This document shows positions 1 through 55,343 of a stretch of DNA of 64,000 nt, piece after piece. Source of the DNA: Podospora anserina. Lineage: Eukaryota. Both the position numbers and the translations under genes were made by a program. How positions within the stretch are numbered: the first letter of the stretch is position 1; each line of letters starts with the position of its first letter. The DNA lies in assembly GCA_017654855.1 (NCBI GenBank), contig CM030336.1:3410001-3474000 (forward strand), read 5' to 3'. The notes below the pieces were generated by a model. It saw only the letters and a list, made by a program, of their open reading frames with translations. It searched no databases and was not told the DNA's origin.

Positions 1-3000
1 TCCCGCTTCCCTTTGCCATGGCCACCAGTATCATCTGGAAACATGCGTCCAGTGCGGTGGGGTGGATGTGGTAGGAAGACTCCCTCAGGCCGTTCAGTGG
101 AGCCTCTACTTGACCGATAGCATGGGTGTTAACGGGACATGCTTCGATGTGCTTGAGCCTGCGGAACGTTGGTCCGAACTCGATACCGATTCTCCCAAAG
201 CTGGAGTACATCTTTTGGGAGGATACCTTTCTTGGGAGGCTAGTTGGAGCATTCTCGGCCTTCACTGAGCGCTTGGCCGCCGGCTTTACCAGGCCTTCAC
301 AGTGCTTAATCCAGCCAGATCCCGTAAAGGAAGATATGCTAAAGTGATAAAACCCCGAGTCTGCTTTTTCCGTCAGCCGCTGTGGCCGAAGAGAAGTCAC
401 AATCTCAGCGGCTTTCCCCCGATAAAGCAGCAAGGCAGTGTGCACGACAATGTTCCGCAGGCTGTATCCAGTCTCAACTTTTGTCAGCTGTCGGATTGCT
501 TCACCCGCCATGGCGACATAGCCGGCAAAGGGGAAGACAATGTCACCCTTGACCTTGTGGTCAGCAAGCCACTCTTCGTCTTCTACGTCGAGAAGATTAC
601 GCCAGGAGGGTTCGAGGCCAGAGCTCTCTTCAATGCGGCGGCCGAGGAGGGCATGTCGGCTGAACTCTGCTTGCCTCCAATCTTTGCTGATCCGGCTTTC
701 GTTCCAGTAACGAGTGGAGTGGTTCCAGGAGTATGGTGCCAGATCGTGGAGGACTTTGCCGGAGAGGAATGAGGCGAAGTCGATGGTCAGTCCATGCTGC
801 CAAAGGGAGCCCAAGGCTGTGAGGAGGGTCTTGCTGGAGTTCTCTTTGCGAATGGCCGTAGGGATGTACTCGAACGCAACGCTTTTATGGGTGACAATCT
901 GCCGCAGTGGCCCCTTCAGTTGAGAGTGTGGTCCAACCTCCAAGAAAACGGAGTTGGGAAGGCTCTCCATCACAGATCTTGCCGCAGAAAGGAACTTGAC
1001 TTTGGAGGTGAGATTTGTTGCCCAGTACGAGAGGTCAATGGGGTCCTCATGAAGATCTCCCGAAACAGTTGAGTACCAGGGAATAGTTGGTTTCCGTTGT
1101 TGGTTGGCATCTGGAAGCTCTCGTCTAAGAAGCTCCAGATATCGAGTAGCGGGTTCATTCATGTGAGACGAGTGATAGGCCGTATTGACTGCTAGCTTCT
1201 TGCAGAAAGCTTCAGGAAATGCGTTCCTGACAGCCGACATGGTCTGCTCAACAGCAGGTATATCGCCGGATATTGTTGTTGAGTTTGGACTGTTTTCTGC
1301 TGCAATTGTTGCACCATCAGCCAGGGATAGGGTCACATCTTCTGATCCCAAGCCCACGGCGGCCATAGCACCAGGCCGGACGCTCTCCTTCATAATAAAG
1401 CCCCTGTAGTATGCGATGATGATAGCCTCTGACAAACTTAGCACTCCTGCTGCATAAGCACCGGTTATTTCTCCGCTGGAGTGACCGATCACAGCATCCG
1501 GGTGAATGCCCTTCCTTGCGAGAGACCGAACGAAGGCGAGCTGCAGCGCTGTACAGAGTGGCTGAGAGAATTCAGCTTCGTAGATCTGGGATTCCTCTGG
1601 CCGCTTCGAGAGCTCATCTACACGACAGGGAGTCAGTTGTCCTTCTCTATCTTAGCGGTATGGGTCAGCTGGGACAGTGATCTTACCTTCCAGGGACCAT
1701 GCCGGAGGTTTCTCCGAGGATTGCAACACGTCGTTCATGACCGAGATGTCGTTCCTAAACTCTGGATCTTCTCTAAGTAGCTCTAGTCCCATCTGCGGCC
1801 ACTGAGCACCCTGTCCGGAGAAAACCATCACAACCTTGGGTGGCTGGGCGTCTGCTTTACGGGCTGGTACTGGCTCTTCAGGTCCATCCTTTCCAGCAAT
1901 GACAAAGCTGCGATGACTCAAATGCTCCCGATGTAAGGCTAGAGTGTAGCTGAGATGTTTGAGGTTGTCTTGGTGCTGGTGGTTGTAGTTGGTGATGTTG
2001 TCGATGTTTTGCTTCAGCGAGGAAGGGCAGTTGGCGGAGACTAGGAGCAGCGAAGGGGAACTGGTGTCTTGAGCTTTTTCATCGATCAGGCTTGCCACCA
2101 GACTTGGGCAGAATTCTTTGACTGTCTCGACAATCACCTGTTCATGGAAGATTAGAATCTCGATCAAGAGGGCTTGCCACGGAAGTTATAGCACCTACGT
2201 GAGCGTTGGCCCCTCCGATTCCAAACGAGTTGATGCTGATTCGTTCTGATCGGTCGACTGGCCACTGGGTTGGCTTCATCGGCACTTCCAACCGACCTTG
2301 CTCGAAAGGAACTATGCTTCGTCAGTCTCGTCACCAGAGAGAAGCTATTGACCGAGAATCTTACTGTTCGGAGCGGGGTTGTGGAACTTGATCTGGGGCG
2401 GGATGACTTTCTTTTCCAGCGTCAAGACCGCTTTGATCAAGCTCGTCAAGCCAGACGCCCCTTCGGAATGCCCGACGTTTGCTTTGACCTAGGCAGTGTC
2501 AGAACAAAAGGCGTTGTTGTTCTCAGGAGGCACACTCACTGAGCCCATTAGAATCCCTGCGCCGCCAAAGACGTCGGCAACCGCGATGGCTTCTTTGCGG
2601 TCACCTTCCTTGGTTCCAGTTCCATGACACTGCAAGAAAACCGATCAGCATCGTCACATGCGAGTCTGAAAGGGTTCGCTTACCTCAATGTATCCCGTGT
2701 CTTTGACATCCAATCCCGTAGACTCATACACAGACCGGATTAAAGCAGCTTGCGTGGCACTATCCGGAGAGATGAGACCATCGCGGCTATGGCCGTTGGC
2801 GTTGGTCCCAGACCCCCGGATCACAGCCCTAACAGGGTTCCCATCCCGAACCGCATCATCAAGTCTCTTGAGAAACACAGCATTAACCCCCTCAGCTCGC
2901 CCATACCCATCCGCCGCGGCATCAAACGGCTTGCAAGATCCTTCAGGCGAGAAGATACCCTCCGAAGTCAAGATCTCGTACCCCTTCGGCGTCAAGATCA

Positions 3001-3751
3001 AGCTTGACCCACCAACAACAGCAGCATCCGCATCGCCAGCCTGCAACACACGACATGCCTCGTGCAAAGCAACCAACGAAGCGGAACACCCCGTCTTGAT
3101 AACCATGCTTGGCCCACTTAAGCCAAATTCGTAGAACACCCGGTTGGCGAGCAAAAGATCCATATGACCGACATTGTGTCCGCTCCCGCCCTGTAAGCTG
3201 TCCTTGGCTTGCATCAACAGCCAGTCCTCCCCGAAGGTCCCAATGTAGCACCCAATTCGCTTGCCTCGGTATTGGGTCTCTCCCGCGTTCTCGAGACATT
3301 CTCTCGTCACTTCGAGGAGCTGGCGAATCTGGGGGTCCATTCGTTCTAGCTCGGCCTTGCGGCAACTGAAGAAAGAGGTGTCAAAAGCGGCGATGTCATG
3401 ATCGAGGAAGTAGCCGTGTTGCGGGACGAGGCCGACGGAGCTGTGTTCTGTGCTGAAGCCGAGGGCGTTGAAGCGGCTTTTGGGGGTAGGGGTGCGCATG
3501 TCGCGGCCGCTGTAGAGGGCGTCCCAGAAGGAGGTGGCGTCGTTGATTCCGCCTGGGAGGCGGAGGGCGAGGCCGCAGATTGCGATGGGGGCCTGGCAGG
3601 TAAGGGGGTCACTGTTGGAGGAAAGGGGAGTGGTGGGTCCAGTTTCGAGGGAGGTTGTGGTGGATGTGTTCCCGCCTTCTGAGGATCTCAACAGCAGGTT
3701 CCCATTTTCAGAGCTTGTGTCTGGATGGGTACTAGTGACGGCGTCGGTCAT
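1..3751 (-). CDS. Reducing type I iterative polyketide synthase, 5' part (KS-AT-DH); runs off the left edge; multi-exon
   Basis: KS motifs [23 protein letters not shown], catalytic [18 protein letters not shown] and [13 protein letters not shown] across short introns; AT motifs [14 protein letters not shown] and AYHS; DH motif [11 protein letters not shown] and [10 protein letters not shown] at the window edge. Confidence 0.95.
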
Positions 3752-5226
3752 GATGAAGTCTGTACAGCGTTGGTCAAGAAGCAGTTGGGGAAGGCCTGGC
3801 GTCCACAGCTGAAAGAAAAAAGACCTTGGAATCCCCGGTATATGTGTCTTGACGAGGGTGTCCCTGCTTTCTCATCCATGGCCACTGAAGCCGCGCATCG
3901 TGCCCTCGCATCTGCCGGCGTCCGTCCCTGTGGCTGAAGAGCTGGCACAAGTTCTAAGCTTGTGAAATGTCAAAAGTTCATGATCTAATGGCGACTTCTT
4001 CTGCAGTCAGCAGGTTATGTGCTTGCCTATCACATCGATGACGGCCGTTGATTGGACTGCATGACATCCCTAGCCTTTTATCTTGACATTATGGAATGCG
4101 ATCAGATGTTCCAAAATGTTGTTGGGTCGCCAAGGTGAGTAGTAACACGGGTTTTATGACATTCTGCATGATGACCGCAGGTTTTGGCTCCGAATTTAGG
4201 AGATCTAGTCCGAAAAGGGACAATTAGCTTCCGTATTATCTTGATGCTGAGGTTTCACAACAGAAATGTAGAGAACCTGTGTTCATGTCGGCTTGTGTTA
4301 CCTGTGATTTGTAATACCTTGCGTCCCACTAAGTACTGTGGCACCCAGGTAAGACCAGTAGCGCCCGTAGCAGCATGTTATGCGAACAGCTTTTCTCTTT
4401 CTCATTTGCCATCCTGATTCATTTCTCTCCAGTAGTATCAGCAACTTCGACCTGGCTTGATATTGATAACGGAGCTGCTTTTCAACATCTTGACTTTGGA
4501 GCAGAAGTTTGGCAAGGCGTACATGCACATTCCGGAAAGGGTGCCCTTGGTGTTACGGTGGGTATGAATGGTGCAGGGTTGGTGTCGATCGAACCGAGGG
4601 ATGGGATGTCATGACCTTGCCAAGAGAGACAGTAAAGAGATGATTGAAGTCTGTGGGTGCTGATGAGAAGAGAATGAAGAAGTATTGTATCTCAGGGTTT
4701 TGTGTTGATGACTGCCTAGTGGGTGGAGGATCAAGAGAGGTCGGTTGGATTTGTTGAGTTATCAAAGAAAAGAAATATCGCGATCGTGACGGGCCGAGGC
4801 TTGAGATGGTCGGATATCGGGGCTGAGACTTAACAGTAATGGGAATTATGGCGTAATATTAATAATTCGATACAGCTGACAGGAGTCTTACCTGTGTGTG
4901 CCTGGTAAATCGCTCATCTCATGATTTGAGCTAACAGACCAACACTTTGATGGGTCACTATGGTGATTGTGATCAGTGGGTGTTTCCATTGTCTTGTATT
5001 TCACAGGCTGCGTCTGTTTGATGCAATCGATGCTGTTTGGCCTCCATGTTTGCTTCTCCGAGCTTGTGTTTTGAGCACAGTAATGATTTATTCTTTCATT
5101 GGTATCTCTGACTGTGGCTCATGTTCTGGCATCTCTCATCCTGTCCATCGCTATTAGTACTTACGCACGTACGTACCTAGTAAACCTCCCTGGGTGGACG
5201 TAACCACGGCGGCGATTCGTGGTGGT

Positions 5227-11809: not shown

Positions 11810-14800
11810 ATGGCGGATCCTGATCCACCAAAACATGAGGTATGTTATGTGTAGAATATCTTTTTTGCGCGTCGTGATCAAGACCACTGACGGACCCTGT
11901 GCTTGCAGTCGGCCGGCTTGAGTCCCGCCACCAAGGAACGCGATGCGCCCAGCACCGCGACCACAACAACCGGCAATGGCGACCACAAAGCTAGCTCAAA
12001 ATTCCACCTCGATGTCGAAGACGCCCTGACGCCCGACCCGGGCACCGAGGACATGTTCATTGTCGAGAACAACAAGTTCGCCTACTCCCCCGGACAGCTC
12101 GCCAAGTTCTTCAACCCAAAGAGTCTCAATGCTTTCTTTGCCGTCGGTGGTTTGGCTGGGTTGGAAAAGGGTCTGCAGACAAACCGCGAGAGCGGTTTGA
12201 GTGTCGACGAAACCTCGGTGGGCTCGTCCGTTGCCTTTGAGGAGGTCGCGCCCAAGGGCGTGCCAAAATATGGATCTCATGGCGACACTGAACCCACCGT
12301 CAAGGGCGACAATCCGGCCGCCGCTGCCGCTGCTGCCAATGCCACAACTTCAACTCACGATGCCGGTGGCGCCTTTGCAGACCGCAAGCGCATCTTCAAA
12401 GAGAACAGATTGCCAGAGAAGAAAAGCAAATCGCTGCTGCAGCTCGCCTGGATCACCTACAACGACAAGATCTTGATCTTGCTGACGGCCGCCGCCGTTG
12501 TATCGCTTGCGCTTGGTCTGTATCAGACCTTTGGTGTCACTCATGAACCGGAGCCGGTTGCACCGGGCCAGCCCCCTGCTGAGGAGGGCGCCAAGGTCGA
12601 ATGGGTCGAGGGTGTGGCCATCATGGTCGCAATCATCATTGTGGTGGTGGTTGGTACGCTGAACGACTGGCAAATGGAACGGCAATTCAACAAGCTCAAC
12701 AAGAAACACAACGATCGCACCGTCAAAGTTATTCGCTCCGGCAAGTCTGCCGAGATCTCCGTCTTTGATATTGTGGTGGGTGATGTCATGCATCTGAGTC
12801 AAGGTGACATGGTGCCGGTCGACGGCATCTTCATCAGTGGGCACGGGGTGAAATGCGACGAGTCTTCGGCTACTGGCGAATCAGATCTCTTGAAAAAGGT
12901 TTCGGGCGAGGAAGTGTACAGGATCCTCGAGGCCATCTCGAGAGGCGAAGAGGCACCACACGACATCGAGAAGCTCGACCCATTCATCATCTCCGGCAGC
13001 AAGGTCAATGAAGGCACTGGCACCTTTTTGGTCACAGCTGTCGGTGTCAATTCTTGCTACGGACGCACCATGATGTCCTTGCACACCGAGACCGAAGACA
13101 CGCCTTTGCAAAAGAAGCTCAACCGCCTGGCAGATGGCATTGCCAAGTTTGGTGGTGGCGCTGCTTTGCTCTTGTTTGTCGTTCTTTTCATCAAGTTTCT
13201 TGCCTCCCTCCCGGGCAGCCAGGATACACCCGACCAAAAGGGCCAGACCTTCCTCCGGCTCTTCATCACTGCTGTGACTGTCGTCGTCGTTGCTGTTCCT
13301 GAGGGTCTGCCACTGGCTGTCACCCTGGCGCTTGCTTTTGCCACCACCAGGATGATGCGTGACAACAACTTGGTGCGGGTTTTGAAAGCTTGTGAGACGA
13401 TGGGCAATGCGACGACAGTATGCTCCGACAAGACCGGTACTCTCACACAAAACAAGATGACAGTGGTAGCGACAACACTCGGCAAAAGTATCAGCTTTGG
13501 CGGGACCGACGCCCCTCTGGATGACGACCCTGGCATCAAGACCGAAAAGTCCGCTGCCAACACGGTTCCCAACGTTCCGATTACCGAATTCACCCAGGGC
13601 TTGAGCAACACGGTCAAGAGGCTTCTTGTGCAGGCAAACGCTGTCAACTCGACTGCTTTTGAGGGCGAATCTGAAGGCGAGAAGACATTTGTTGGGTCCA
13701 AGACGGAAGTTGCGCTGCTTGTCCTCAGTCGCGATCACCTCGGCTCCGCCCCTGTCCAGGAGGAGCGGGCCAATTCCAACGTTGTCCAGGTTGTCCCTTT
13801 CGATTCGGCTGTCAAGTACATGGCAACTGTCGTCAAGCTCCCCGACGGCAGGTTCCGCGCATACGTCAAGGGTGCCTCCGAGATTCTGTTGGGCAAGTGC
13901 TCCAAGGTTATCGCCGATGCCAGTTCCGAGGAGCTTTCCGCCGTGGACATGACGGAAGACGACCGCGAAATGTTCGCCGAGACCATCACTTCATATGCCG
14001 GCCAAACCCTCCGCACAATTGGATCCTCGTACCGCGACTTTGAGTCCTGGCCGCCCCCGGAATTGGCTGGGCAGACGGAGCTCACAGCGGCTGAGTTCGA
14101 CAAGGTTCACAAGGACATGACGCTCCTTGCCATCTTTGGCATCAAGGACCCCCTGAGACCCACCGTCAAGAAGGCTATCGAGGACTGCAAGCGTGCTCAC
14201 GTCAAGGTTCGCATGGTCACAGGCGACAATCTGCTCACCGGTCGCGCTATCGCCAAGGAATGCGGTATTTACAACCCCAAGGAGGGCGGCATCGCCATGG
14301 AGGGCCCCGTTTTCCGTCGCAAGACCCCTGAGGAGTTGAAGGAGCTCGTACCCAAGCTCGAGGTGCTCGCCCGTTCCAGTCCTGAGGACAAGCGTATTCT
14401 GGTCAAGACGTTAAAGGATCTTGGTGAAACGGTTGCTGTCACTGGCGACGGTACCAACGATGCCCCGGCTCTCAAGATGGCTGATATCGGCTTTGCCATG
14501 GGTATCGCTGGTACTGAAGTCGCCAAGGAGGCTGCCGCTATCATTCTCATGGATGACAACTTTGCTTCCATTGTCAAGGGTATCAGCTGGGGTCGTGCCG
14601 TCAATGACGCCGTCAAGAAGTTCCTGCAGGTATGTATGCTCCTCTGATGTCTCTGTTGTGTGATGATGAACAACGCTGACATGTTCCAAAGTTCCAACTC
14701 ACGGTCAACGTCACCGCCGTGGTCGTCACCTTCGTTACAGCAGTTGCCAGCGACAAGGAGGAATCCGTCCTCAACGCTGTTCAACTTCTTTGGGTCAACC

Positions 14801-26279: not shown

Positions 26280-28700
26280 CTACTCAAACTTGGCAACCTC
26301 ATACATATCATCCGGATCCTTCCCCTCCCCCTCAACAAACCCCCTCACCTCCCCAACCCTTTTCTCAATCTCCCCCAACACCTCCTCCCTGTTATCTCCC
26401 TCCCTCACCCCCTCCACCACCGCCCACCTAGCAACATCAAACCTACTGACCCCATTCAACAACATCATATCAAACGGCGTCGTCGTCGTCCCCTCCTCCC
26501 TATACCCCTCAACCCTCATCCTCCCCACCCCCTCTCGTCCAAACAACAACCCCTGCAGCTCAGTCGGATACCCATGATAATTAAACAACACCGGCCTCTC
26601 CCGCGTAAACAACTCCAAAAACCTCTCCTTGCTCAACGCATGAGGGTGCCTGCTCACGGGAGCAAGAATCATAAGGTCAGTAACATTCACCACTCTGACC
26701 TTCAACGCCGGACAAATCTCCCGGAGCAGTTCCGCCGCCTTGACAACCTCAAAAGTGACCTCCACCCCGATGCCCACCAAGACAACATCCGGCTCCTCGT
26801 TCGGCCCGAGAGGGGTCGAGGCAAACTGCCAGATGCTCGCGCCTCGCCTGCAGTGTTCGGCCGCTTCTTCTGCAGAGAGGTACACAGCAGTAGGCTGCTT
26901 GGACCCGATGATGAGATTCGTATAATTCCTTGACCCGAGGCAGTGGTGAACAGTCGACAAAAAACAATTGGCGTCGGGAGGAAGATAAACCCTCGCAGCC
27001 TCAGCCTTGAGGTTAATAACCGCACCAATGAAGCTAGGGTTCTGATGAGAAAACCCATTGTGCTCCTGCCGAGCCCAAGTGCTGGTTTCAATGTAGTTGA
27101 TCGACGCCAAATCCCCCCTCCAGGGAACTTCCCGGGCGATCTTGACAAACTTGGAGTACTGCACCATCATGGTGTGGACAATACCCAAAAAAGACTCATA
27201 ACTAGGAAAGATGGCAGTCCTCCCAGTCAGAGTATACCCCTGCATGAAAGCCTGGCAGTCATGCTCCGACAGCACCTCGATCACCCTCCCCCCGTTCCCC
27301 CTCGAATACTCATCCCACTGAAAGTTCCTCTGCGTGTGATCCAGTATCGCATCCAGCTTGTTGCTCTCCAGCTCATCCGGCGAAAACAATCTTATGCTCT
27401 TCGGATTCTCCCGAAACACCCTGTCCAAAAACTTGCCCGTAACCTTCATGCAGCTCTGATCAGTCCCCTTCTCCACCGTAAACTCCCTCCAATCAACCCT
27501 CTTCAACCCCTCATAGGCATCATACGTCAGCCTATTCTGCCCCAACCTCCTCTCCCTCTCCCGCGGTAAAATCCTCGTCACCTCCTCCGTCGGCCTTCCG
27601 TCCTTAACCAGCTCCCAAATCCGATAACTCTCAAGCCACTTCCCCAACTCCCCCAGCTGTCCATCCTCCTCCCCCGCCTTGGGAAGCGGCACCTGATGCG
27701 AGTGAAAACTCCCCTCAATAATCTTCCCATCCACCTCCTTCGGCCCCGTCCACCCCTTCGGCGTCCTCAGCACAATCATCGGCCACCTCGGCTTAACCAC
27801 TGCCCTCCCCTCCCTCGCCGCCTTCTGTATCTTCCTGATCTCCCCCAAAGCCCAGTCCAACCCCCCCTGCAACTCCTCATCCACCCGTTCCAAATCCTCC
27901 ACCACCAAAACCTGATACCCATACCCACTAAACAAAGCCACAATCTCCTTGTCATCCATACACCCAAAAATAGTCCTCTCGCTAATCTTGAACCCGTTGA
28001 CATGCAGTATCGGGATCACCGCCCCCGACTCCTTCGGGTTCAAGAATTTGATCGCATGCCACGCCGTAGCTGTCGGTCCCGTCTCCGCTTCTCCATCACC
28101 AACCACTACCGTGACGACCAAATCAGGCTTGTCCATGACAGCACCAAACGCCGCCCCCAGCGCATACCCCAACTCCCCCCCCTCATGAATAGCACCCGGA
28201 GTCTCGGCATTGATATGACTCGGAAACCCCCCCGGCACAGAAAATCTCGTCACCAGGTTATGAAACCCGCTTTCCGTGAGATCATACTCCCCGGGGTAAA
28301 ACCTCTCCAGTGACCCCTCAAGCCATAAAGCAGCCAGCGCAGCGGGAGCGCCGTGACCGGGACCGATGACGAAAATCATTTCTAGGTCGGGGTTGTTTCG
28401 CAAAAGAAGGTTGAGGTGGGAATACACAAGGACAAGGCCAGGGCAGGTGCCCCAGTGCCCGAGGAGACGGGGCTTGATGTCGTTGTGGGAGAGGGGGTTT
28501 TGCAGCAGAGTGTTGGAGCGGAGGAAGATCATGGATGCGGCGAGGTAGTTTGCTGCTCGCTGGAAGGCTTTGAGGGAGGCGAGGTCGGTGGGGGGGAGGG
28601 GTTTGGGAGGGAGGGTGACAGATAGGTCGTGGAGGATGCTGTCTGGGAGGGAGGAGGGGAGGGCGGGGGGGTTGGGGATGGGGATTTCGGATCGGGGCAT
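26280..28700 (-). CDS. Xylulose-5-phosphate/fructose-6-phosphate phosphoketolase (XFP family), intronless
   Basis: 806 aa; KPRLLGHWGTCPG, GPGHGAPA, HEGGELGY, TPP-binding GDGEAETGP, LSEH, RQEHNGFSHQNP, GYREEGTTTTPFDM. Confidence 0.97.
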   Translation of the reverse strand: MPRSEIPIPNPPALPSSLPDSILHDLSVTLPPKPLPPTDLASLKAFQRAANYLAASMIFLRSNTLLQNPLSHNDIKPRLLGHWGTCPGLVLVYSHLNLLLRNNPDLEMIFVIGPGHGAPAALAALWLEGSLERFYPGEYDLTESGFHNLVTRFSVPGGFPSHINAETPGAIHEGGELGYALGAAFGAVMDKPDLVVTVVVGDGEAETGPTATAWHAIKFLNPKESGAVIPILHVNGFKISERTIFGCMDDKEIVALFSGYGYQVLVVEDLERVDEELQGGLDWALGEIRKIQKAAREGRAVVKPRWPMIVLRTPKGWTGPKEVDGKIIEGSFHSHQVPLPKAGEEDGQLGELGKWLESYRIWELVKDGRPTEEVTRILPRERERRLGQNRLTYDAYEGLKRVDWREFTVEKGTDQSCMKVTGKFLDRVFRENPKSIRLFSPDELESNKLDAILDHTQRNFQWDEYSRGNGGRVIEVLSEHDCQAFMQGYTLTGRTAIFPSYESFLGIVHTMMVQYSKFVKIAREVPWRGDLASINYIETSTWARQEHNGFSHQNPSFIGAVINLKAEAARVYLPPDANCFLSTVHHCLGSRNYTNLIIGSKQPTAVYLSAEEAAEHCRRGASIWQFASTPLGPNEEPDVVLVGIGVEVTFEVVKAAELLREICPALKVRVVNVTDLMILAPVSRHPHALSKERFLELFTRERPVLFNYHGYPTELQGLLFGREGVGRMRVEGYREEGTTTTPFDMMLLNGVSRFDVARWAVVEGVREGDNREEVLGEIEKRVGEVRGFVEGEGKDPDDMYEVAKFE

Positions 28701-29190
28701 TTTGGTGGTGTTTTTTTCAGGTTGTCGTGATGTTTGTTGAAGGTTGTGTTTGCTGATACCTAGTGAGACCGTTCCGTAGTCGTGGTCGTGTGAGTGCTAG
28801 TTCAACGGTAGGGCGGTGTCAAAGTGTCGCGGGCCGCGCTGTTAAACTCAATTGTATAGCGAACGGTCGTTGTCTGTGCGAGATGCATGCAATGGTTTGA
28901 GAGAGCGTTCGTTCATCGCAGCTTTTTGCAGTTTCAGCTTCGGATGGCAGGTTGATAACCGGCAGGAGCTCTGTCGTATCGATGACGTAGGGCAGTCCCA
29001 CCAATCAACCCCCCTCCTGCACAACAACCAAGCTGTCGGATCGGCCCACTTTTCCCATTGGCTGTCATGACCCAGGAATGCCATCACACAACGGAAGTCA
29101 CGGAATCAAAAACACGCTCATAGTGGCATCATATCCAAATCTATTACCCTCATGTATCCATAGGTTTTTGTAGTGTGAGGTAAGTAAAAC

Positions 29191-35647: not shown

Positions 35648-38600
35648 TTATCTCCCTGCTCGCATCGTCAAACTCACGGCTCCTCCCCCGACAGCATTAT
35701 GCCGCCTTGGTGTCATGTAAGCTACCCACTGGCTAGAAGTCCAGTCCCAAAGAGGGGAAGGATCCCCGCGGACCCACTGACGCAAATGTTGTTCCCAAAC
35801 GAGACCATATATCCAGTGGAATGGGTATACTGGGCATAAGTGCTGGTTCCGGTCGTGCATAATGAAAGTCGGTGCGGTCTGATAGAAAGGGGGCTTCCAC
35901 TCCTGTGAATCGCTAGCCACCATGCCCATCGGATCGGTATACCCCAACAGAATATGCATGTTATGAGGCTGGTGCCATCGGATCATGCTGCTCAAAGTGG
36001 TGCTCTTGATACTCCCAAAGTAGCCCATGAGCCATTCTTTTCTGGGCATTTTGAGATCTTCGCAATCCCAGACGGCAATCTCTGCTCTTTCTGTCGGGTA
36101 TCTGAACCCGACAGCCGCCCAGTATTGCGACGTAGCCAAGGGAATCACCAATACCTCCGCAGGAACCTCGGCGCCAAACTCAAGCCAGACTTGGAGCTCG
36201 TTCCATATCGAGACAGGAACGGCGCCTTTATACGAAAAAGCAAAGAGAAAGATGAAGATACTAAGCGTGTCCCTCCAAGGGGATTTGCTCCCGATCGCCA
36301 TACCATCTTGCCGATTAGCAGTCAAAGATTCACGCCACTCAGTCACACTGAACCATGGAGTTTCTCTGGTCCCAATTTGCGGATAATCAACGTTTGGGGA
36401 TAAACCGCTCTCCAACAAAGCTCTTAAAATGGGGGAGACGTCCATGAATTGCTGGCTCTTGAATTGCTTGCGCGTACCACTCACGATGCTCGCGAGGGTC
36501 AGCAACTTGTGAGAATCGTCACCCAAGAGACGGGGGTCCTGTAACCTCCACATCACATAGTTCAGCATCGGCGCAGCCATGTCCGTTGCAATGGCAAATA
36601 GAGAGCCTGGCTGATTTTCCGGATGGGAAATTTGAAAGCCATCCCCACGCATGATCACAAACCAATCTTTGGGCGGCTCCGCGGCAGAAGGGTCGGCGGC
36701 CACGGAATATTGCCGGAAAGCGTCAATCTCGTCCAACAAGGTAAATACCCATGAAGCTGGCGGGGCAGTCATGGCAGAACTTGTCTTTGCCAGACATTCT
36801 ATCATGGCCGGCAACCGCCGCTCCTGCGCAGCCCTCGCATCGAGTTGTTTTCGCGGTGCAAAATTTGTTTGTGTGAAACTCAGGGCTTTGAACTCGGCCA
36901 AGTACGTAGTTAGGATCCCTTCCGCTACCCAATCGTCGTCAATTTTCCAATTGGGCGCCAAATCTCGCAGCTCGGTGCACAAAAAGTCGGATACTGAGCG
37001 GTGCGTGAAATCCGCCGCGTGTTTCCGGTCCGAGTTCAAGGTCCTGACCTCGATCAGGCCTTTGCACCAACTTTGCAACCTCTCGGCCGTCTGTATTTCT
37101 CGCTTCCTATAATCGTGCTCGTTGGAGCAAAGAGGAACCGGAAAGAGAAAACGCCTATCCTCATCGTTGTGTTGGCAGTTATCAAACGAGTCGAATATGT
37201 AAGAGAGACCGAACAATGTGAGTGCTTGGGACGTGGTCACGTTTTTGGCTGGTGAAAAGTTGTTCGAATAATCCCCGGCAATGCAGTAGCCACGAAGTCG
37301 TAACATCATCGCCAGTACGAAGTGCGCTCCTCTGGCATGATGCTTGGGAATAGTCTTGAAGATCCTCCGAAAAAACTCATTGAGTTCGTCTGGTGCTGTT
37401 TCGATAAGCCGGTGGATCGTGTGGAATGATGTACTCCGCTGGTTCGGAAGTTCTTCCTCTATGAGCTTCAGTAAGAACACAACCCACAAGAAGACACCTT
37501 TGGCGTTGTCAATGATCAGTCGAGTTGTCTTATCCTGACGACCATCGGTGTCTGACAGTGCAACACGCTGGAAATAAGGATTGGAACTGAGCCTTTCATG
37601 TACCAACGCGCCGATGTCAGCATCAGTGAGATGGTGGAGTGTAATGCGATGCGCACAATGCAAAGCTCCAAGTATCGGAGTTTCTTCTCGGCTTGAAACA
37701 CAAAGCTTCACGTTCCTGTGTTTTGCCCAGCTGCCTAGCCTGTCACAGAAAGCCCAGAGAGACTGGCTAGGCTCGTCAAACTCATCGAGCCCGTCAATGA
37801 AAAGACAGATCTTGAACCGAGCAGATATCTCTTCAGCTGTCAACAGCCTATTGACGGCATTGTTGATCTGGGTATCTGATATGGTTGGTATCGGAGATTT
37901 CGCTAGCGACATTGCAGCGTACCTCCTTGGAGCCCAATGATCCGGAAAGAGTATACTGGTAAGCTCAGAATTGCCCCTGAGTATGTCATATATTATTCCT
38001 CTCAAGAGCCCGCGTGTAGTCTTTTGCTCTGCTGTTCCGATCTTCCAAAAAAAGAAACGCGAGCAAATGAGTTGCTTTGGTGACGGGCCTGAGGCGGCCC
38101 AAGACTCAAGACATTGTTGGGTTGTAGAATGTGTGGCCAAGTACTTCATCAGAGTTGACTTGCCAGCTCCAGGTTTGCCTGCAATGTGGTAAATACCCGA
38201 ACCCGATCTTAACCAGTGGATAAACTCTTGGGAGGCGTTGACCCTGGCGGGATCATCGATGTCTGGCGAACTATCGCCACTCTCCACCCCCGACGGCCGC
38301 CCAAGCATCCAGGAGAATGTGGTACACGCTGGATCGGCAATCTCTTCGAAACGCTTATCAGCAGTAGCCGGCCTCAGGGCGCCCAAAATAGTCGCCTGAT
38401 TCATCGACTCCAACGAGGCCTCGGACAAATATATTGCGTCTTTGATCATCTGCAATAGGTCCAACTTCTCGGTGAGCTTTGCAAGCTCTAATGACAGCGC
38501 ATCCTTGACTGTTTGCAGGTTCGACTCGTTAACCAGCCTAGCAAGCCCTTCCAGTGGATCGAGCTTCTGACTGATGGCTTCCAGTTTTGTTATCAACTGT

Positions 38601-39128
38601 GGGCTACGTTGCTCGGAGGCTGCAAGCAGCTGTTTTATTACTGAAACATCGTTACTGAGTTGGAGAAGTTAGAGGACAGGTACCTGGCCGGCCGAAAGTG
38701 AAATCTAGCGTGTGAGCTTACTTGGTGGTAATTGCAAGTGCGGTTCTCAGTTGGCCCGTTGCCGATTCCAGCTCTTTCTGCAGATCCTGAAGCTCCGACT
38801 TGTGCTTTGTGTATTGGGCTTTGGCTTGCAGGGCACTGGCAACCGAAGATGGCTTGCGAGCTTTGCACAGGTCGAGCATGGCTCTTATTTCCTTGATCGT
38901 TGCAGAACACCGCTCCGATGCTAATCTCGCGGACGCGTCGAGCCTGGGGTTGGCAAGCTGGCCAAGTGCAGCATCGAACTGACTCATGGCAAGGAGCAGT
39001 TTGTCTGTTTGTTTGGTGAAACCCGAAGTCGACTTGTACAGGTCCCAAAGTGTTTTTCCAGTTTTGACAGCAATGTCAACCGTAGAGAGCACGTTGACTG
39101 CCAACGAAAAGGCTGATATCGGGTCCAT
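35648..39128 (-). CDS. Fungal NLR-like NACHT NTPase with HeLo-like/SesA-like N-terminal helical domain; intron 38655-38721; ~1140 aa
   Basis: N-terminus MDPISAFSLAVNVLSTVDIAVK; TFSWM, P-loop GKPGAGKSTLMKYL, Walker B LFIDGLDE, CVSSR, AKGVFLWV, FTHRSVSDFL; the splice joins the two ORFs in frame. Confidence 0.92.
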
Positions 39129-43395: not shown

Positions 43396-44116
43396 CTACT
43401 GCCTTGGAATCCCGATTTCCCAGGGCAGGTCACCTGGGTGAGCCCGCCCCATGAACGCTAATAACAGAGAAATAGTGCCGCTATATAAAAACATGAGCCC
43501 CAAGGCGGATGTAACAGCAGCGCCAACTTCTTGAAAACCCCATCTGCCGGATGGTGGCGGGGAAAGTACCAGACCGATTCCTGTTACCAACGCTATCATG
43601 AACATCAGCATGAACACGGCGCCCAATGTTAGGGCATCTTTCCACGTCATGGAAGAAGAAGGTCGATGCTGATCTGGTATGTTGCCGTCTTGCAATTGCT
43701 TGTACCACTTGTTAAGCTTTTTGTGGATATCTTTGCATCGGAGACGTCGCCGGGTATCCTTGGGGAGCTTGCCGTTGCTCTGGACTGGCGGCTCAACAAC
43801 CAACATGTCCTTTTCGATCATGTTCAAAAGGTTGTGGACGTAGTTGGTGCAGCTGGGGTGGCCGTGTAAGCCGCGTATGAACTATATCTGTGTCTTTAGT
43901 GTTGGTTTCCAAAGTCAAAGCGGAGTGCTGGACTTGTGGTGGCTAACCTGGGTTACGGACGGTTTGACTTGGAAAGGCAGCTGAGAAGACGATGGGCGGC
44001 TCCCTCGGGCGCGTCGTGTCGAGTTATAGTACGCAGCTTGATAGTCGCCGTCGTGTTTCCGATTCTTTTCGAACTCGCGGAGCAAGCGGATTCCGCCCAT
44101 ATACCAGGTGATGAAC
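43396..44116 (-). pseudogene. 5'-truncated protein kinase (end of C-lobe) with two C-terminal TM helices; intron 43882-43947
   Basis: FITWYMGG..LLREFEKNR..VKPSVTQ|FIRGLHGHPSCTNYVHNLLNMIEKDMLVVEP..RLRCKDIHKKL, resembling fungal kinase subdomains IX-XI, then two hydrophobic helices; no upstream kinase part. Confidence 0.72.
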
Positions 44117-47100
44117 ATCTGGGCTCTTAGTTGCATTGTACTCGAATTCTTAATATGGTTGCTTTATGGGTGGCAGGAACTGGCCGAGTTTCATCAACAA
44201 ATTCGGGACAAACAAAGACTTCCATCGCCCTTCTATGAGGAAGACACTGTGGAGCTTGGAAAAAGGAAGGCCAAGGTTCACGGAAGAGTAGTGGAGTGGA
44301 TGGGCAAACTCAGTCGCCATCCGCTTTGCCAGGAAGGCACTGCCATGAGGGATATGCTGGAACTCGTGAGGACTCGGTTGTTGGTCGTTCGACTACCAGT
44401 TAATATCGGTCGACTTGGAGATGGCCCTACCCCCGACTCTGTCCGTTTGTCCCGTCGAAACACAATCGAAAACATGCGCGAGGCCAGAGAAACTTAGCAA
44501 CAGGCAGTCTCGCCACCCATACCAGCAGCACCCACTTTTGCTGACGAGCCAACATCACACGACGAAACTCGCGAAGCTGTGGTAGTTCCTGACATTGTTG
44601 TTGACACTGCTGATAATAAAGAAAACTCTGCTCAGACTCCTGTCAAGCAAGGAGACCCCGAGCAGCATTTGTGCCGTGCAAAAGCTTTCGAGGTGACCGA
44701 AAAGCTTCAAGTCATTCTAGATCACAAGGATGAGAGCTACTGGCTTCCCTCCCATTCCTCTCCGCAGTCAATCGCTGTTCAGCCTCCCGACCCCCTCAGC
44801 CAGGGCAATGAAAGAGAAGCATCAGATGCATACGAGACTTTTTCAAGCATTGGATCATCCACCATTGACTCTACTGCAACTAGGGCTTTCGATTCAGGTA
44901 CGTCTACTCATGTAGACTCCGGTCAATCAACCAGTAGTCCAACCAGCAAAAAGGGAAGGGACGCCAAGCTTCTTGCACCACAAGTGCCACAACGTAAGTC
45001 TTGCTGAGAGGCCATGATAATGAAAGAGCCATCTAACAAGCATTCAATGAGATGGCTGATTATGTGTGATCAATCTGCATATTATGAAACACGCAACCCT
45101 TTCTGATACAGTCATTACATAGTTCCAAGTTGTGAGTAAACCTCGGTTTCTTCATGTCCTAGTTCATCAAAGGTTGGCACTGACAGGCCGAAATTAGTAC
45201 GTGAGTTCGTTGTAATGCCTCTTCAAAAAACCTTTTACTGGTTGTTTTATCGTTCTAGACTGATCATAGACAATGGTGAATGCACATGAAGGCTGTGAGC
45301 CCTCTACCTCAGTTATAAGCCCAAGGCGTTTCGTGCTAACTCGTGGCAGCATGTAAGTTGATCTATCGTCTGTTCGTTGATATTACTCGAGACAATGCTA
45401 ATTGCTTTATTTGACACCACCTTCAGCCAGTAAGCAGTCTTTGGTCTGGCCTCTAATGAGAACATGGTATTAATCTAAGATTATTAGGAGGCAAGTCAGT
45501 TTCTCAGAATGGCACGGTCCAGCCTTTCTGACAGTGTGCAGCTTGGTGACCGTTGGACCCTTCACATCGACAACCAGTTTCCCCTCAACGTTGCCTTGAC
45601 CATTCAGGGTCACAACCTTCCTCATCCTGGAGGAAGACTACAGCTTGATCGTCTCTGTGTCAGCTGCCAGTCAAGACAGTTATGGAAGGTTGGGTTCAGC
45701 TTCACTGTGAGTGTGAAATCACTCGAGGCGCAGGCAGCTCGCAAAGCATGTGACATGTGCTGCCTCCTTTGGAAAGCTTGCTCGAAGGCAGGAGGCACAA
45801 ACTTCCAGACGTCAACTTTCACAAGGGTTGGGTCAGGCCTAACTCTGAACTCGGGTAATGTTCATGTCTTATCAATTTGTCAAGAACCAAGTGAGTATTC
45901 CGCCACCACTGCAAAAAGATCGCACTTATCTTCCCCTCCCACCTTTTGCGACGTTGTTAACATCAAGCTGACCATATCAGTTGTTCACAGAGCCGTTGAC
46001 TACTTCAGTGATATCCAGATTGGGTACCCTTGTCTTCAAAAGGCAGGAAGCGATGTTCACTTCAAGATCATGAATCAGTGGCTAGACCTGTGTGATTCAA
46101 CACATTATCACATGGGTGATGCAGCGTCAACAAAGCCTGACCTTCCCACAAGACTGATTGATGTTGGCCACCCTGACAATGAGTCTGTTAGGCTACGGGA
46201 GACACAGGCGGGAGATTATATCCGATACATTGCTCTTTCTCATCCTTGGGGAGATCTTCCACACTTCTGCACGTACCGCAGCAATCTGAAGGCCCACATG
46301 GAAAGCATAAAGGTCAGTGATCTTCCGGCAACCTTCCGAGATGCCGTCGTGTCTACACGCGCCCTCGGGCTTCAGTATTTATGGATCGATCCCATCTGCA
46401 TAATACAAGGACCAGACGGAGACTTTATCTCTGAAGCCAAGCGGATGGAACAAGTTTTCAGTTCGGCATACTGTGCTCTTGCCGCCAGCTGCACCATTGG
46501 CCAGTCGGACGGATTCCTGAAGCCACGACGCCCGAGAGACTACGTACAGCTCCCATCGCAAGAAAACAACAGACCTCCGCTGTATCTCTGTGACCAGATC
46601 GACGACTTCAACAGCCATGTGCTGCAAGAACCTCCCAGCACCCGCGGTTGGGTCCTCCAAGAACATGCCCTTGCCCGCCGCACAATTTTCTTCACGGAGC
46701 ACCAGACATACTTTGAATGTGGGAAGGGTGTGCATTGCGAGACCATGATACGCATGTCAAAGTAAGATACAATATCCATCCCTTGTTTCTTCTTCTTTTT
46801 TTTTTGGCATATCCACAGAGCAACAGGCTGGCTGATCAGACTTCAAGCTCCCTCGCCGACCTCATAGGCGACACCAACTTCCTCCAGCTCATCATGAGAG
46901 CCTCCAAAGGCGAGCGTATCCTCCGCTATCAAGACTTTTACAGAAAGTAGTCCCGCCTCAATTTTACGCGGCCTTCAACCGCCCCATCGCCCTCGACGGT
47001 CTGCAGAGCAGGCTGCTCAAGGCTTTCGGGACCAGAGGCGGCTTCGGCATATTCGACGAGGGAGACCTTCACGGCCATCTCCGGCGCAGCTTACTCTGGC

Positions 47101-47684
47101 ACCGTGCCGCGGATGAGCCGACCATGCAGAGGATTGACTTCCCTGCCAGCCGTCTGGTGGTTCCAGAGACGGCCGTTATGCTCCCCCCAACGTGGTCCTG
47201 GATAGCGTACACAGGGGCCATTGATTATTTTGATTTGGAGTTTGGAGGGGTCGAGTGGGTGGACGGTGTTAGTTCGCCATGGACCAGTGTCAGCGATAAA
47301 GCTCTTGCTGCTCGTGGTCCCCTGAGACTGCGCGGGAAGGCGAGGAGGTTCAGGATTGACGATGGTATACTTTCAGAGAAGAAGGCAGTGGTCGTTCTTG
47401 ACATCCCAGACGAGCCAAAGCAGCAGGAACAACGCGTGATGGTTTTGGGGAGAGATCAACTGGATGTGGGGGGCTCTAGACTGTTGGCATCTGGTGGTAG
47501 CGATCTTGGGTCGCGTAGGAATTATGTCCTTTTCATTGGCAAAAAATCATTGGCAGACAGGGGAGTCAAGGGTGACCATGCTCAGGGATCTAGGTGGATC
47601 AGATTGGGGCTGGGTATCTGCCGGAAAGATGTATCTCCCAGGATTGGGTGTTGGTTCATACTTACTAAGGGTAATGTCGTCTAG
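44115..47684 (+). pseudogene. 5'-truncated protein kinase-HET domain gene with premature stops and frameshifts
   Basis: Starts at subdomain IX (N)IWAL(S)CIVLEFLIWLLYG; HET motifs LPTRLIDVG, YIALSHPWG, LPATFRDAV, YLWIDPICIIQ, MEQVFSSAY, RGWVLQEHALARR; PPTWSW; stops at 44495 and 46948, frameshift near 46975. Confidence 0.9.
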
Positions 47685-52719: not shown

Positions 52720-55343
52720 CAATGTTGCAGCCAAATCATCGACCTGAAGCCCCATTCCGTTTTAAATTCCTTCAAATTCGCGATAGTTGCCGTCGTCTCC
52801 TCGAGGAGACAAGGTCTTCCACCGCAGGTCCAGTCTTATCGATTGAATTTGCATATACTGACGTACATTAGGAACCCATCTCGAATCAACCCCGTCAACA
52901 TGCTGTCTAACCCTTCGTGCAAGATTTGCGGGAAAATTTTGGAGGTAGTCTCGTTTTACCTGAAAAGCCAACACGAAAGAGATGAGTGGTTCATACCTAA
53001 CCACAGATAGTAAGGAGATACCCATCTGCACTTTAAGGGGCAGGATGATAGTTCTTGCGAATACTCTTGGCCTTTTAATTTCAGTAGAATTCAGTTGCTG
53101 ACTACCATCCCATGATAGTATAAAATCAGTGGATTTGGGCACCTATGGCCATCTAGTTTCGGATTCGGGGTGCGAAGCTCACTAGGCTTTCTTCAACTCC
53201 GAGTATATAACGCGTCAGAGGCTTGGGCACTCGGCAACGGTGTCCTTGAATGCATTCGCCCGTCCAGCCTGGAAACGGATGAATTTCCTAGCCCTCGAGT
53301 TTGACGACACAAAAGAAAATCGGGGATCAACAGAGGCAAGTCTGGCATGCTTATGAAAAGGCCGACTAGACGGCGTGACAAGTCTCGATCGCAAAGATAT
53401 CAACCTCGACCAGGTGAACTCTTGGAAGCATGGCTGCGAAAGAGCCCACGGTGGAAAGTGCTTGATCAAGGGTGACCCTCCCCAGTCCATGGCGTGGCTT
53501 ATTGACGCAAAGAAGCAATGCCTGGTACCAGCAAAGGCCGAACTACAGTATGTTGCGTTGAGCTATGTGTGGGGACAGGCAGCGATGCTCAGGACAGAGC
53601 GCGCCAATTTGTTGGCTCACCAAAACGACCGTGTATTTGATCGATTAAGAGTAATGATGCCTGCGACTATCAACGATGCTATTGGTCTGGTCCCTTTGAT
53701 AGGCGAGAGATATATATGGGTCGCTTTGCATCGTTCATGAAGAAGGCTCAAAACATACGCGAATTCGGGATATGGCCAAGATATATGAGAACACTCGACT
53801 TACTATTGTAGCTGGCGATGGCCTAGATGCCGACCATGGCTTGCGCGGTATTCCCAACGTTTCTCAGCCTCGACAGTTGCACCCCGAACTAGAACTCAGC
53901 GACACCATCTCCGTGCGTGCCCCACAAAATCTTGCACTGGAAGAAACCACATGGGCACGCCGTGGTTGGACGTGGCAGGAACTCCAGTTTTCACAGCGAC
54001 GGTTAACATTTGTTGACGGGTCTGTTCGGTGGAGGTGTGCAGAATCCTTTTTCTGTGAGGACGATGTCTTCCCTGCGCGTGATTACAGGAAGACAACCGA
54101 GTCGATAGGAGACCTGAATGAACCCAATCTAGATAACGTCTGCCGGAGTAGGGTGGGTGTGGGAGCAGCAAGTCTGACCGACCTGGGAAAGGACATTTCG
54201 ACATTTAATCAACGCTCATTGACATACGACGAAGACGCTTTGCTTGCTTTCGAGGGAACCCTAGCGATCTATATTGAACATCAGTTTCCACGCGGCTTTC
54301 TTCATGGCATTCCTGTATCATTGTTGGACTCTGCGCTACTGAGGCACACTCAGACAACCGTACCGTTCGCTGAAGTACGGCAAGCATCCAGTCACTCCCG
54401 GGAGTGTCCACCTCGTTGGGGTTGGTCTGGCTGGAAGGGTAAAATTTTGCAGTGTTGGGAAGGGGGTCTCCTCGGGCAGGACAACGTTCGACCTCCACAA
54501 CAAACCATATCCATCCTCACATGGAAACTACGTTGCTCCGTCACTTCTACCCCTGTCAAAATTCCCTTTCAAAATGACTAGTACAGTTAGAAAACAGAAT
54601 ACATGGGTAACATTAGCAACCTCCCGCAAGGTTGGAGGGTTGCTCAATATCGAAAGTTCCTTGTCCGACCAAATCAAATAGAGCTTAGTGCAGAGGCCAA
54701 CCTACTACGCCGACTCTTTTTCCAAAAGAGCAACGCCTATGTCCGAAATGAAGCTTCCTATCAGAACTTAGATGGGGCGAGTGTCGAGCAGATTGGTTAT
54801 ATCCCTGGAGTTGGCTTACCGACCACTTTTCTTTGTCATCCCGTCCCCTATGGAAGACACCTTGAATCGTCTGTAGCACAAATGCCGCAGCCTATAGGGA
54901 GATACCTTTGTGCCTTGACACAACAGGGGCGTCTTTGGGGTGACGAGGAGCGCATATTGATGCCAGAAGAGCTTGGGAGCACAGAAGAGCCATTCGACCT
55001 ATATTAAGTGTTTCTCGAGCTCCCCCTTGTACTTCGAAACTCTGAAGACCAAGAAGTGGACGAAATTCGACCGCATAGCAAAGAGGATAACGCATTGCTG
55101 AACTCCTGGAGGAAGGAGAAGAAGGACGGGGATGAGACCATAGGCTACCCGTGTGACAATGTGGCGATCTCACGTGGTTACGATGGTGATTCTCCGTTGA
55201 TTGACGATAAGGACATCTACACCTTCTATAACGTTCTCTGGGTGGAGTGGATCGATGGGGTGGCATATCGACGGGGTGTGGGCCACGTGATCAGAACAGC
55301 ATGGGAAAGTATGGAGAAGGATGCGGAGCTTATTCTTGGGTAG
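52720..55343 (+). pseudogene. HET-domain protein pseudogene (5' boundary approximate)
   Basis: WLIDAKKQCL, YVALSYVWG, PATINDAI, RYIWV then frameshift, MAKIYENTRLTIVA, WARRGWTWQE, RSLTYDEDALLAFEG, NVLWVEW...AYRRGVG; stops at 54579 and 55005. Confidence 0.9.

Follow-up and report, generated by a model that had tools for sequence, protein, structure and literature searches.

Analysis of a 64,000-nucleotide stretch of the Podospora anserina genome (GenBank assembly GCA_017654855.1, contig CM030336.1, positions 3,410,001 to 3,474,000 of the forward strand; hereafter the window, numbered from its first letter) revealed the 3′ parts of two protein kinase genes lying back to back at positions 43,396 to 47,684. 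The remnant on the minus strand codes for the end of a kinase of the group designated clade B below, and that on the plus strand for the end of a clade A kinase, which is followed by a linker, a cysteine-rich stretch and a HET domain. We think it likely that the locus is the dead remnant of a two-gene module conserved in filamentous fungi, composed of a clade B kinase gene and a divergently oriented clade A kinase–HET gene, and that it was truncated by a deletion. The truncation of the kinases, together with further stop codons and a frameshift, leaves the module non-functional in the window; judging from its sequence, neither remnant would be able to act as a kinase and this copy appears to be an ordinary dead locus.

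Two kinase C-lobes meet at the junction

The plus strand reads ggtgatgaacatctgg at positions 44107–44122. The codons at the ends of the two frames have 2 nt (AA) in common, the Phe codon of the minus-strand gene being the complement of 44113–44115. An overlap of this length had been reported in the initial annotation of the region and is confirmed by the letters of the sequence; the junction string quoted there, gatgaAC/ACatctgg, is absent from the sequence, the AC having been doubled. An ATG at 44111–44113, directly before the Asn codon of the plus-strand gene, is composed of minus-gene codons. From this Asn codon (44114–44116), the plus frame reads NIWALSCIVLEFLIWLLYGWQELAEF…. The minus frame begins within a kinase C-lobe (FITWYMGG…) and the plus frame begins 11 residues earlier in the homologous position (NIWALSC…). 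A kinase–HET protein, P0028, aligns with both fragments, with the plus fragment from about residue 200 and with the minus fragment from residue 212. Homology searches thus bear out the proposal that both fragments are kinase C-lobes and that the two genes are cut at almost equivalent positions.

Kinase homology was established for C-lobe subdomains IX–XI in both fragments. The minus fragment gave no Pfam match, and a search of PDB sequences returned nothing. When translated through its intron, with X at the stop codons, and used as a phmmer query against 1.84 billion representative sequences, it matched 28 proteins at E ≤ 1e-3, with a best non-self value of 1.2e-7; one of the 28 is an 84-residue open reading frame (ORF) from the same species group. 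A Pkinase domain was present in all 10 of the matches that were scanned, so that the minus-strand peptide, which had been marked for checking on this point, does match kinase C-lobes. Its first residues align just past position ~191 of the 263 positions of the Pkinase profile. No Pfam kinase match was obtained with the plus C-lobe fragment, the flanking ORFs or the linker, and nothing relevant came from PDB sequences; each of the five non-self homologues of this fragment (E 2.7e-17 to 6.3e-6) has a Pkinase domain, in which the alignment starts at the D-I-W-S-x-G-C motif of subdomain IX.

The N-lobe, with its glycine-rich loop, VAIK lysine and αC glutamate, is present in the homologues; neither the fragments nor any other part of the window contains it. 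The catalytic loop (H-R/G-D-x-K-x-x-N, which in the homologues is RHGDLKPxN) and the DFG motif are also absent, both fragments beginning after these motifs. A tblastn search of the 64 kb with five full-length kinases found no other kinase pieces (best other match, E 0.87). The earlier statement that both N-lobes, both catalytic loops and the promoter between the genes are missing is therefore correct, none of them remaining in the window.

Kinase genes lie beside kinase–HET genes in metagenome contigs

Metagenome contigs were scanned with an alignment of the plus C-lobe. This gave 57 loci in 33 similarity groups, which we count as 34 because one group was joined only through a 1.2–1.4 kb match of 92–93%. 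Kinases and HET regions were then mapped by tblastn. In 21 of the 34 groups the kinase is followed by a HET region of the same orientation (E down to 1e-98). Most of the remaining groups end too early to judge; L005, L015/16 and the L033 group show no HET in downstream sequence of 2.7 kb or more.

Ten groups have a kinase–HET gene and at least 3 kb of sequence upstream of it, and in nine of these there is a second kinase within about 3.2 kb. The two genes are head to head in six (L003, L013, the L017 group, L027/28, the L039 group and L048) and in tandem in three (L014/43, L019/20 and L022/23). Two further head-to-head pairs, in L006 and L054, are on contigs that end before the HET region. Elsewhere in representative loci amounting to about 329 kb, a single stray kinase match was found. 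The arrangement in the window is that of L003, L028 and L054, and probably also of L006. Homologues of the two genes, whose adjacency in other genomes the initial annotation had proposed as a check, are thus neighbours in nearly all of the assessable kinase–HET loci.

The members of these pairs correspond to the two remnants. In all 11 pairs the best match of the HET-linked kinase is a protein found by the plus fragment, and in eight of the 11 the best match of the partner is a protein found by the minus fragment. Over 8 loci, the distances separating the HET-linked kinases from one another correlate with those separating their partners (Mantel r 0.78, p 0.0004), as expected if the pair is inherited together, although a shared species history alone would also give a correlation. 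A complex prediction for the kinase domains of the L003 pair had a score of 0.01, which counts neither for nor against binding.

Two groups of loci depart from the common architecture. In L033, L034, L035, L036 and L038 (e.g. L036:96-308, 943-2603), a clade A kinase has no HET within 8 kb downstream and a weak HET-like match just upstream on the opposite strand; by this layout it may be a split form of the kinase–HET architecture. In L055–L057 (e.g. L056:8756-9140), a C-lobe scrap of 24 residues is directly followed by the HET C-terminal region, and this looks like another, more heavily deleted kinase–HET relic.

The two kinases belong to separate clades

A careful maximum-likelihood tree, calculated from 128 C-lobe columns and 25 + 30 rows, splits 25 rows, termed clade A, from the other 30 with support 100/99. 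Clade A contains 15 of the 17 HET-linked kinases, the plus fragment and P0007, a protein of Podospora pseudocomata. Among the other 30 rows are six of the seven partners, the minus fragment and two kinase–HET fusions, P0028 and P0033. An earlier quick tree was less likely than the constrained tree in which the minus fragment is basal, and our conclusions rest on the careful tree and on profile scores. With profiles for clades A and B built without the window sequences, the minus fragment scores 88.6 bits (B) versus 33.6 (A) and the plus fragment 115.4 bits (A) versus 55.7 (B). The C-lobe signatures differ in the same sense, EF-x-T-W-x-x-G-G (clade B) being read in the minus fragment, together with FI-x-x-LH-x-HP-x-CT, versus EF-x-I-W-L-L-Y-G (clade A) in the plus fragment. 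A position of the minus fragment inside clade B is supported by the profile scores, the signature and the position of its intron.

P0028 and P0033 are clade B kinases that are themselves fused to HET, and HET fusion has therefore arisen or persisted in both kinase clades.

H-G-D replaces H-R-D in 47 of 51 sequences (H-G-N in one); in the other four, the search pattern gave no site or a wrong one. Both clades are consequently non-RD kinases, a trait that is common among innate-immune kinases. Typical clade B partners contain DFG. The clade A motif is D-W/M/L/V/A-G (with E once and N once), and none of 20 sequences has DFG; as this clade mostly keeps the catalytic Asp and the Asp of D-x-G, it would not clearly qualify as a pseudokinase group. 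In the clade B proteins the N-terminal region is long and variable, and the kinase domain is preceded by a conserved stretch. This stretch matches no named family, and an ESM Atlas search with it gave only ascomycete kinase clusters.

Structure and lesions of the two remnants

The features of the locus are collected in Table 1. In the plus-strand gene, a C-lobe (…EF-x-I-W-L-L-Y-G…), a linker, a Cys-rich stretch and HET succeed one another on one strand, which is the clade A kinase–HET pattern. The HET domain (PF06985) is matched over profile positions 1–146 of 146, with E 1.1e-25 and 91.2 bits versus a gathering cut-off of 22.5. The 418-codon frame that opens at ATG 45509 is Pa_5_7850 of P. 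anserina S mat+ (418 residues), with one residue different; the gene next to Pa_5_7850 is Pa_5_7860. Besides the junction, there are three lesions in this gene that the initial annotation did not mention, namely two in-frame TAG codons and a −1 frameshift. Downstream of HET, a further conserved region (Y-S-R-L…D-R-P-x-A) is not intact, as it contains the TAG at 46948–46950 and the frameshift near 46977. The part that follows, 46980–47684, matches the HET C-terminal regions of 25 loci.

The minus-strand remnant contains a 66-nt intron that had likewise gone unmentioned. The frame is broken at the equivalent place in the partner genes of L020, L028 and L054, and five unspliced database homologues (P0016, P0021, P0024, P0027 and P0029) read 'VS…' inserts at this site. 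For the last exon, the protein homology search found no homologous annotated public protein. Its tail contains two hydrophobic stretches, at about 43564–43620 and 43450–43506, with Kyte–Doolittle values of 2.64 and 1.89. It matches only 84-residue ORFs of the same species group (P0014, P0042 and P0043), and a hydrophobic C-terminal tail was found in none of the 27 non-self homologues, nor in any of the four partner genes that were read at their 3′ ends. The description of the kinase as membrane-anchored accordingly exceeds the evidence: with no counterpart in the homologues, the putative anchor of two transmembrane segments would be either a peculiarity of Podospora or no part of the ancestral protein.

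Table 1. Features of the two kinase gene remnants (window coordinates)
Feature	Position	Strand	Basis
Stop codon (TAG) of the minus-strand remnant	43396–43398	−	Sequence
Last exon of the minus-strand remnant: end of C-lobe (FIRGLHGHPSCTNYVHNLLNMIEKDMLVVEP), C-terminal helix, tail with two hydrophobic stretches	43399–43881	−	Alignment to clade B C-lobe ends
Intron, 66 nt, in frame, GTTAGC…ATATAG, two stop codons inside	43882–43947	−	Sequence and homologues
Remainder of the minus-strand kinase exon, from the Phe of L-E-F-x-T-W (FITWYMGGIRLLREF…)	43948–44115	−	Clade B versus clade A profile, 88.6 versus 33.6 bits
Deletion junction	44113–44116	.	Minus-gene Phe codon 44113–44115 and plus-gene Asn codon 44114–44116
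HET-linked kinase C-lobe, beginning at subdomain IX (NIWALSCIVLEFLIWLLYG…LLVVRLP), and start of linker	44114–44494	+	Clade A versus clade B profile, 115.4 versus 55.7 bits
In-frame TAG	44495–44497	+	Ser in other strains and in P. pseudocomata
Low-complexity linker, frame unchanged; GTAAGT donor next, at 44995	44498–44994	+	92.6% identity to P0007 over 299 residues
Stretch of lower G+C (0.42–0.45) with stops in all frames; probably intron(s) and end of linker	44995–45508	+	By eye only
Cys-rich pre-HET region and complete HET domain (about 46226–46663)	45509–46761	+	Pfam; alignment to P0012 and P0028
Probable intron, GTAAGA…AAG, restoring the frame of the C-terminal half of the HET gene	46762–46847	+	By eye, alignment to P0028
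In-frame TAG replacing the conserved Tyr in Y-S-R-L	46948–46950	+	Comparison with P0028
−1 frameshift, …NFTRPS / RPIALDGL…; frame +2/+1 to +3	46975–46979	+	Motif unbroken in P0028
C-terminal remainder of the HET protein in the shifted frame, stop at 47682–47684	46980–47684	+	tblastn with P0028, E 4e-19

The junction in other strains and in P. pseudocomata

Proteins beginning with MNIWALS… were found in four sequence variants, on 1, 4, 2 and 2 assembled contigs of independent assemblies. As their start codon is made from the minus-strand gene, each of these proteins carries the junction. At the site of TAG 44495, the proteins P0001, P0007 and P0008 read 'RETSQQ', and P0010 and P0011 end at 'RET'. 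Two of the four variants have Ser at this site, and strains with this residue share the junction, from which we conclude that TAG 44495 is younger than the junction.

The P. pseudocomata protein QC762_507845 (P0007) has 34 more kinase residues upstream (…RTVRYEPPE…SRLYNIWALSC), including the end of the activation segment with R-Y-E-P-P-E. Because it reaches 34 residues further into the kinase, sequence has been lost in the window and the junction is specific to the lineage of the window. The P0007 protein model is also truncated, starting in the activation segment and stopping in the linker, and the gene may already be dead in P. pseudocomata as well.

Another strain provides a further variant: its Pa_5_7850 protein (P0046) has a frameshift of its own near the end of the 418-codon frame (…YFEWGRVCIARP), which appears to be a sign of continuing decay among strains.

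Probable loss of the 5′ halves by deletion

The ancestral pair would have consisted of a free non-RD kinase of clade B and, divergently, a clade A kinase–linker–Cys-rich–HET (TIR-like) cell-death protein. In the intact module, the free kinase would most likely control the kinase–HET protein by phosphorylation or by pairing of the kinase domains, thereby releasing the death activity of HET; this step is suggested by the conserved linkage and by the known actions of HET domains. A deletion of roughly 4–5 kb, sized from the spacing of the subdomain IX motifs in the head-to-head loci (4.0–5.4 kb apart), would then have occurred in the lineage of the window. Lost with it would have been the 5′ part of the clade B gene, as far as a point shortly after subdomain IX, together with the promoter region between the genes and, in the clade A gene, the start and the kinase domain up to subdomain IX; the ends would have been joined with an overlap of 2 nt, as in end-joining.

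The initial annotation had proposed that one deletion or inversion-type event knocked out a head-to-head module. Loss of the 5′ halves of such a module by deletion is retained here, and no inversion is needed. That the deletion was the inactivating event is not borne out, given the three other lesions of the plus-strand gene and the truncated P. pseudocomata model. The further suggestion that the two partners may have been co-dependent or toxic alone exceeds the evidence, and an allorecognition or immune role of the pair would be a candidate function. An inversion between inverted paralogues was considered and rejected, since it would invert a segment and leave chimeric whole genes rather than two C-terminal halves. 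Both breaks lie within 11 codons of one homologous site in inverted paralogues, for which we estimate, roughly and post hoc, a chance of a few per cent. There is no palindrome at the junction; an inverted-repeat search there gave short, weak arms (best 22 nt, 73%), which reflect the homologous codons.

Several observations weigh against this reconstruction. The near-symmetry of the break points is unexplained, and the transmembrane tail of the minus-strand gene is without a counterpart in any homologue. The ancestral head-to-head state in Podospora is derived from distant relatives, and the gene models of the metagenome loci are tblastn approximations. L001/L002, one of the ten assessable loci, lacks a partner within 8.8 kb. 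No second kinase was seen in five further kinase–HET groups with only 1.7–2.1 kb of upstream sequence; these say little, as the gap in the positive loci is 1.6–3.2 kb. The partners in L017, L039 and L048 are not typical clade B kinases. Finally, a basal position of the minus fragment between the clades is not rejected by the approximately unbiased test (p-AU 0.76).

It is quite possible, if on balance doubtful, that inactivation of the module preceded the deletion, with point lesions arising first and the deletion following as a neutral loss in a decaying locus. Such an order would account for the stop and the frameshift within conserved motifs of the HET gene, for the polymorphism of TAG 44495, for the separate frameshift of P0046 and for the minus-strand last exon being in no annotated protein of public genomes. 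The P. pseudocomata protein fits too: it lacks the junction and yet spans only from the activation segment to the linker, and its identity of only 92.6% over 299 residues suggests relaxed constraint in both lineages. Against this, the minus-strand remnant retains a 217-codon open frame and an intact intron, and TAG 44495 is younger than the junction; the order of events is not readable from one genome.

We consider it improbable that the remnants are still used, Pa_5_7850 as a stand-alone HET protein from ATG 45509 and the minus-strand ORF as a small protein with two transmembrane segments. The 418-codon HET frame and the 84-codon transmembrane frame are open in several strains with 0–4 changes, HET-only proteins are common and the Pfam match to HET is complete. 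Even so, neither gene has its promoter region any longer, the HET protein is disrupted in its conserved C-terminal half, P0046 has its frameshift inside the 418-residue frame, and the transmembrane tail has no homologue outside the species group.

Still less credit is due to the idea that two kinase pseudogenes are neighbours by chance and never formed a functional pair. On this view, kinases of the family are simply present in large numbers and frequently show local duplication; the two clades are indeed parts of a single expanded fungal family, clade B kinases can be HET-fused too (P0028 and P0033), and the orientation (head to head or tandem) and the type of partner vary. A chance arrangement is at odds with the presence of a neighbour in nine of ten loci against one stray kinase in about 329 kb, with the origin of the paired genes in two deeply separated clades rather than in recent duplication, and with the correlated divergences of the pair members. 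An assembly error at the junction is scarcely credible, as the junction is present in four distinct variants on contigs of independent assemblies. Loss of the 5′ halves of a kinase/kinase–HET module by deletion is therefore the reading that we retain.

Relation to known systems

Literature searches, which extended to the papers but not to supplementary tables, found no paper on a kinase and kinase–HET pair as a unit and none naming Pa_5_7850. NCU06583 of Neurospora crassa is annotated with HET and a kinase domain (PMC10684091), and NCU06582 and NCU06583 are given as the best hits of the Aspergillus nidulans kinases FfkB and FfkC (PMC3591445). The latter paper describes the Ffk proteins as fungus-specific, patchily distributed kinases, deletions of FfkB and FfkC being viable and without phenotype (PMC3591445). 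FfkB and FfkC differ from the kinases studied here in having ankyrin repeats, of which none were seen at our loci, and the NCU genes are not treated as a pair in the relevant parts of these papers (PMC3591445 and PMC10684091). Of the 132 HET genes of Podospora, most have no known role according to the het-B paper (PMC10890737). The consecutive locus numbers of NCU06582 and NCU06583 suggest that the two are adjacent and that the same pair exists in Neurospora.

HET incompatibility gene pairs reportedly include het-c/pin-c and het-6/un-24 of Neurospora. As in these pairs and in Bh/Bp at the het-B locus of Podospora, a HET death effector is linked here to a gene that may govern its activity; the differences are that the partner is a protein kinase, that the HET protein itself has a kinase domain and that the copy in the window is broken. 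Among strains, only small variants of the remnant proteins were seen.

Other fungal death systems also place a regulator and an executioner side by side, as in the clusters of an NLR with HeLo/HELL proteins or of a protease with gasdermin. A 2025 review notes death clusters of two or three genes, as well as fusions of HELL with kinase or pseudokinase domains (PMC12881547). The NLR/HELL and protease/gasdermin clusters signal by amyloid templating or proteolysis. A kinase beside a kinase–HET gene is not mentioned in the passages of the review that were consulted (PMC12881547). The RIPK3–MLKL couple of animal necroptosis offers an analogy, in that a kinase acts on a kinase-like domain fused to an executioner, as we propose may happen here. 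Homology with that system would be confined to the kinase fold, and the executioner is HET here and a four-helix bundle in MLKL.

Neighbouring genes

A large NLR-like gene (NPHP3_N/NACHT, AAA_16 and DUF7791) occupies 35651–38668 on the minus strand, about 5 kb from the remnant, and makes the neighbourhood rich in genes of the non-self-recognition type. A second HET gene lies at ~53546–54578 on the plus strand; HET is matched by Pfam on the ORF 53703–54578 (E 5.4e-11), and the tblastn match of P0028 starts at 53546. Farther away, at 5–3871 (−), 11891–14644 (+) and 26283–28796 (−), are polyketide synthase pieces (KS, AT, DH), a P-type cation ATPase and a phosphoketolase, which are ordinary housekeeping or secondary-metabolism genes.

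Implications

A bolder interpretation, which we offer tentatively and regard as rather unlikely in full, is that a free non-RD kinase beside a kinase–HET protein constitutes an undescribed and widespread cell-death or immune switch of fungi. The partner would sense a cue through its variable N-terminus and activate the HET executioner through the kinase domain of the latter, as a counterpart of RIPK3–MLKL, and the symmetric deletion in Podospora could then be the outcome of selection against a module that was out of balance or reacted against self.

Few domains of filamentous fungi are as abundant or as variable as HET, yet to our knowledge the way in which it is activated has been worked out only for a small number of incompatibility genes. 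The chief value of the dead copy in Podospora is that it directs attention to the module and exemplifies its loss. The gene pair is a variant of the regulator-plus-executioner clusters of fungal cell death. Its conserved kinase/kinase–HET linkage suggests a concrete and testable means of control, phosphorylation, for a whole subfamily of HET proteins, and an unexplained, fungus-specific family of kinases thereby gains a possible job.

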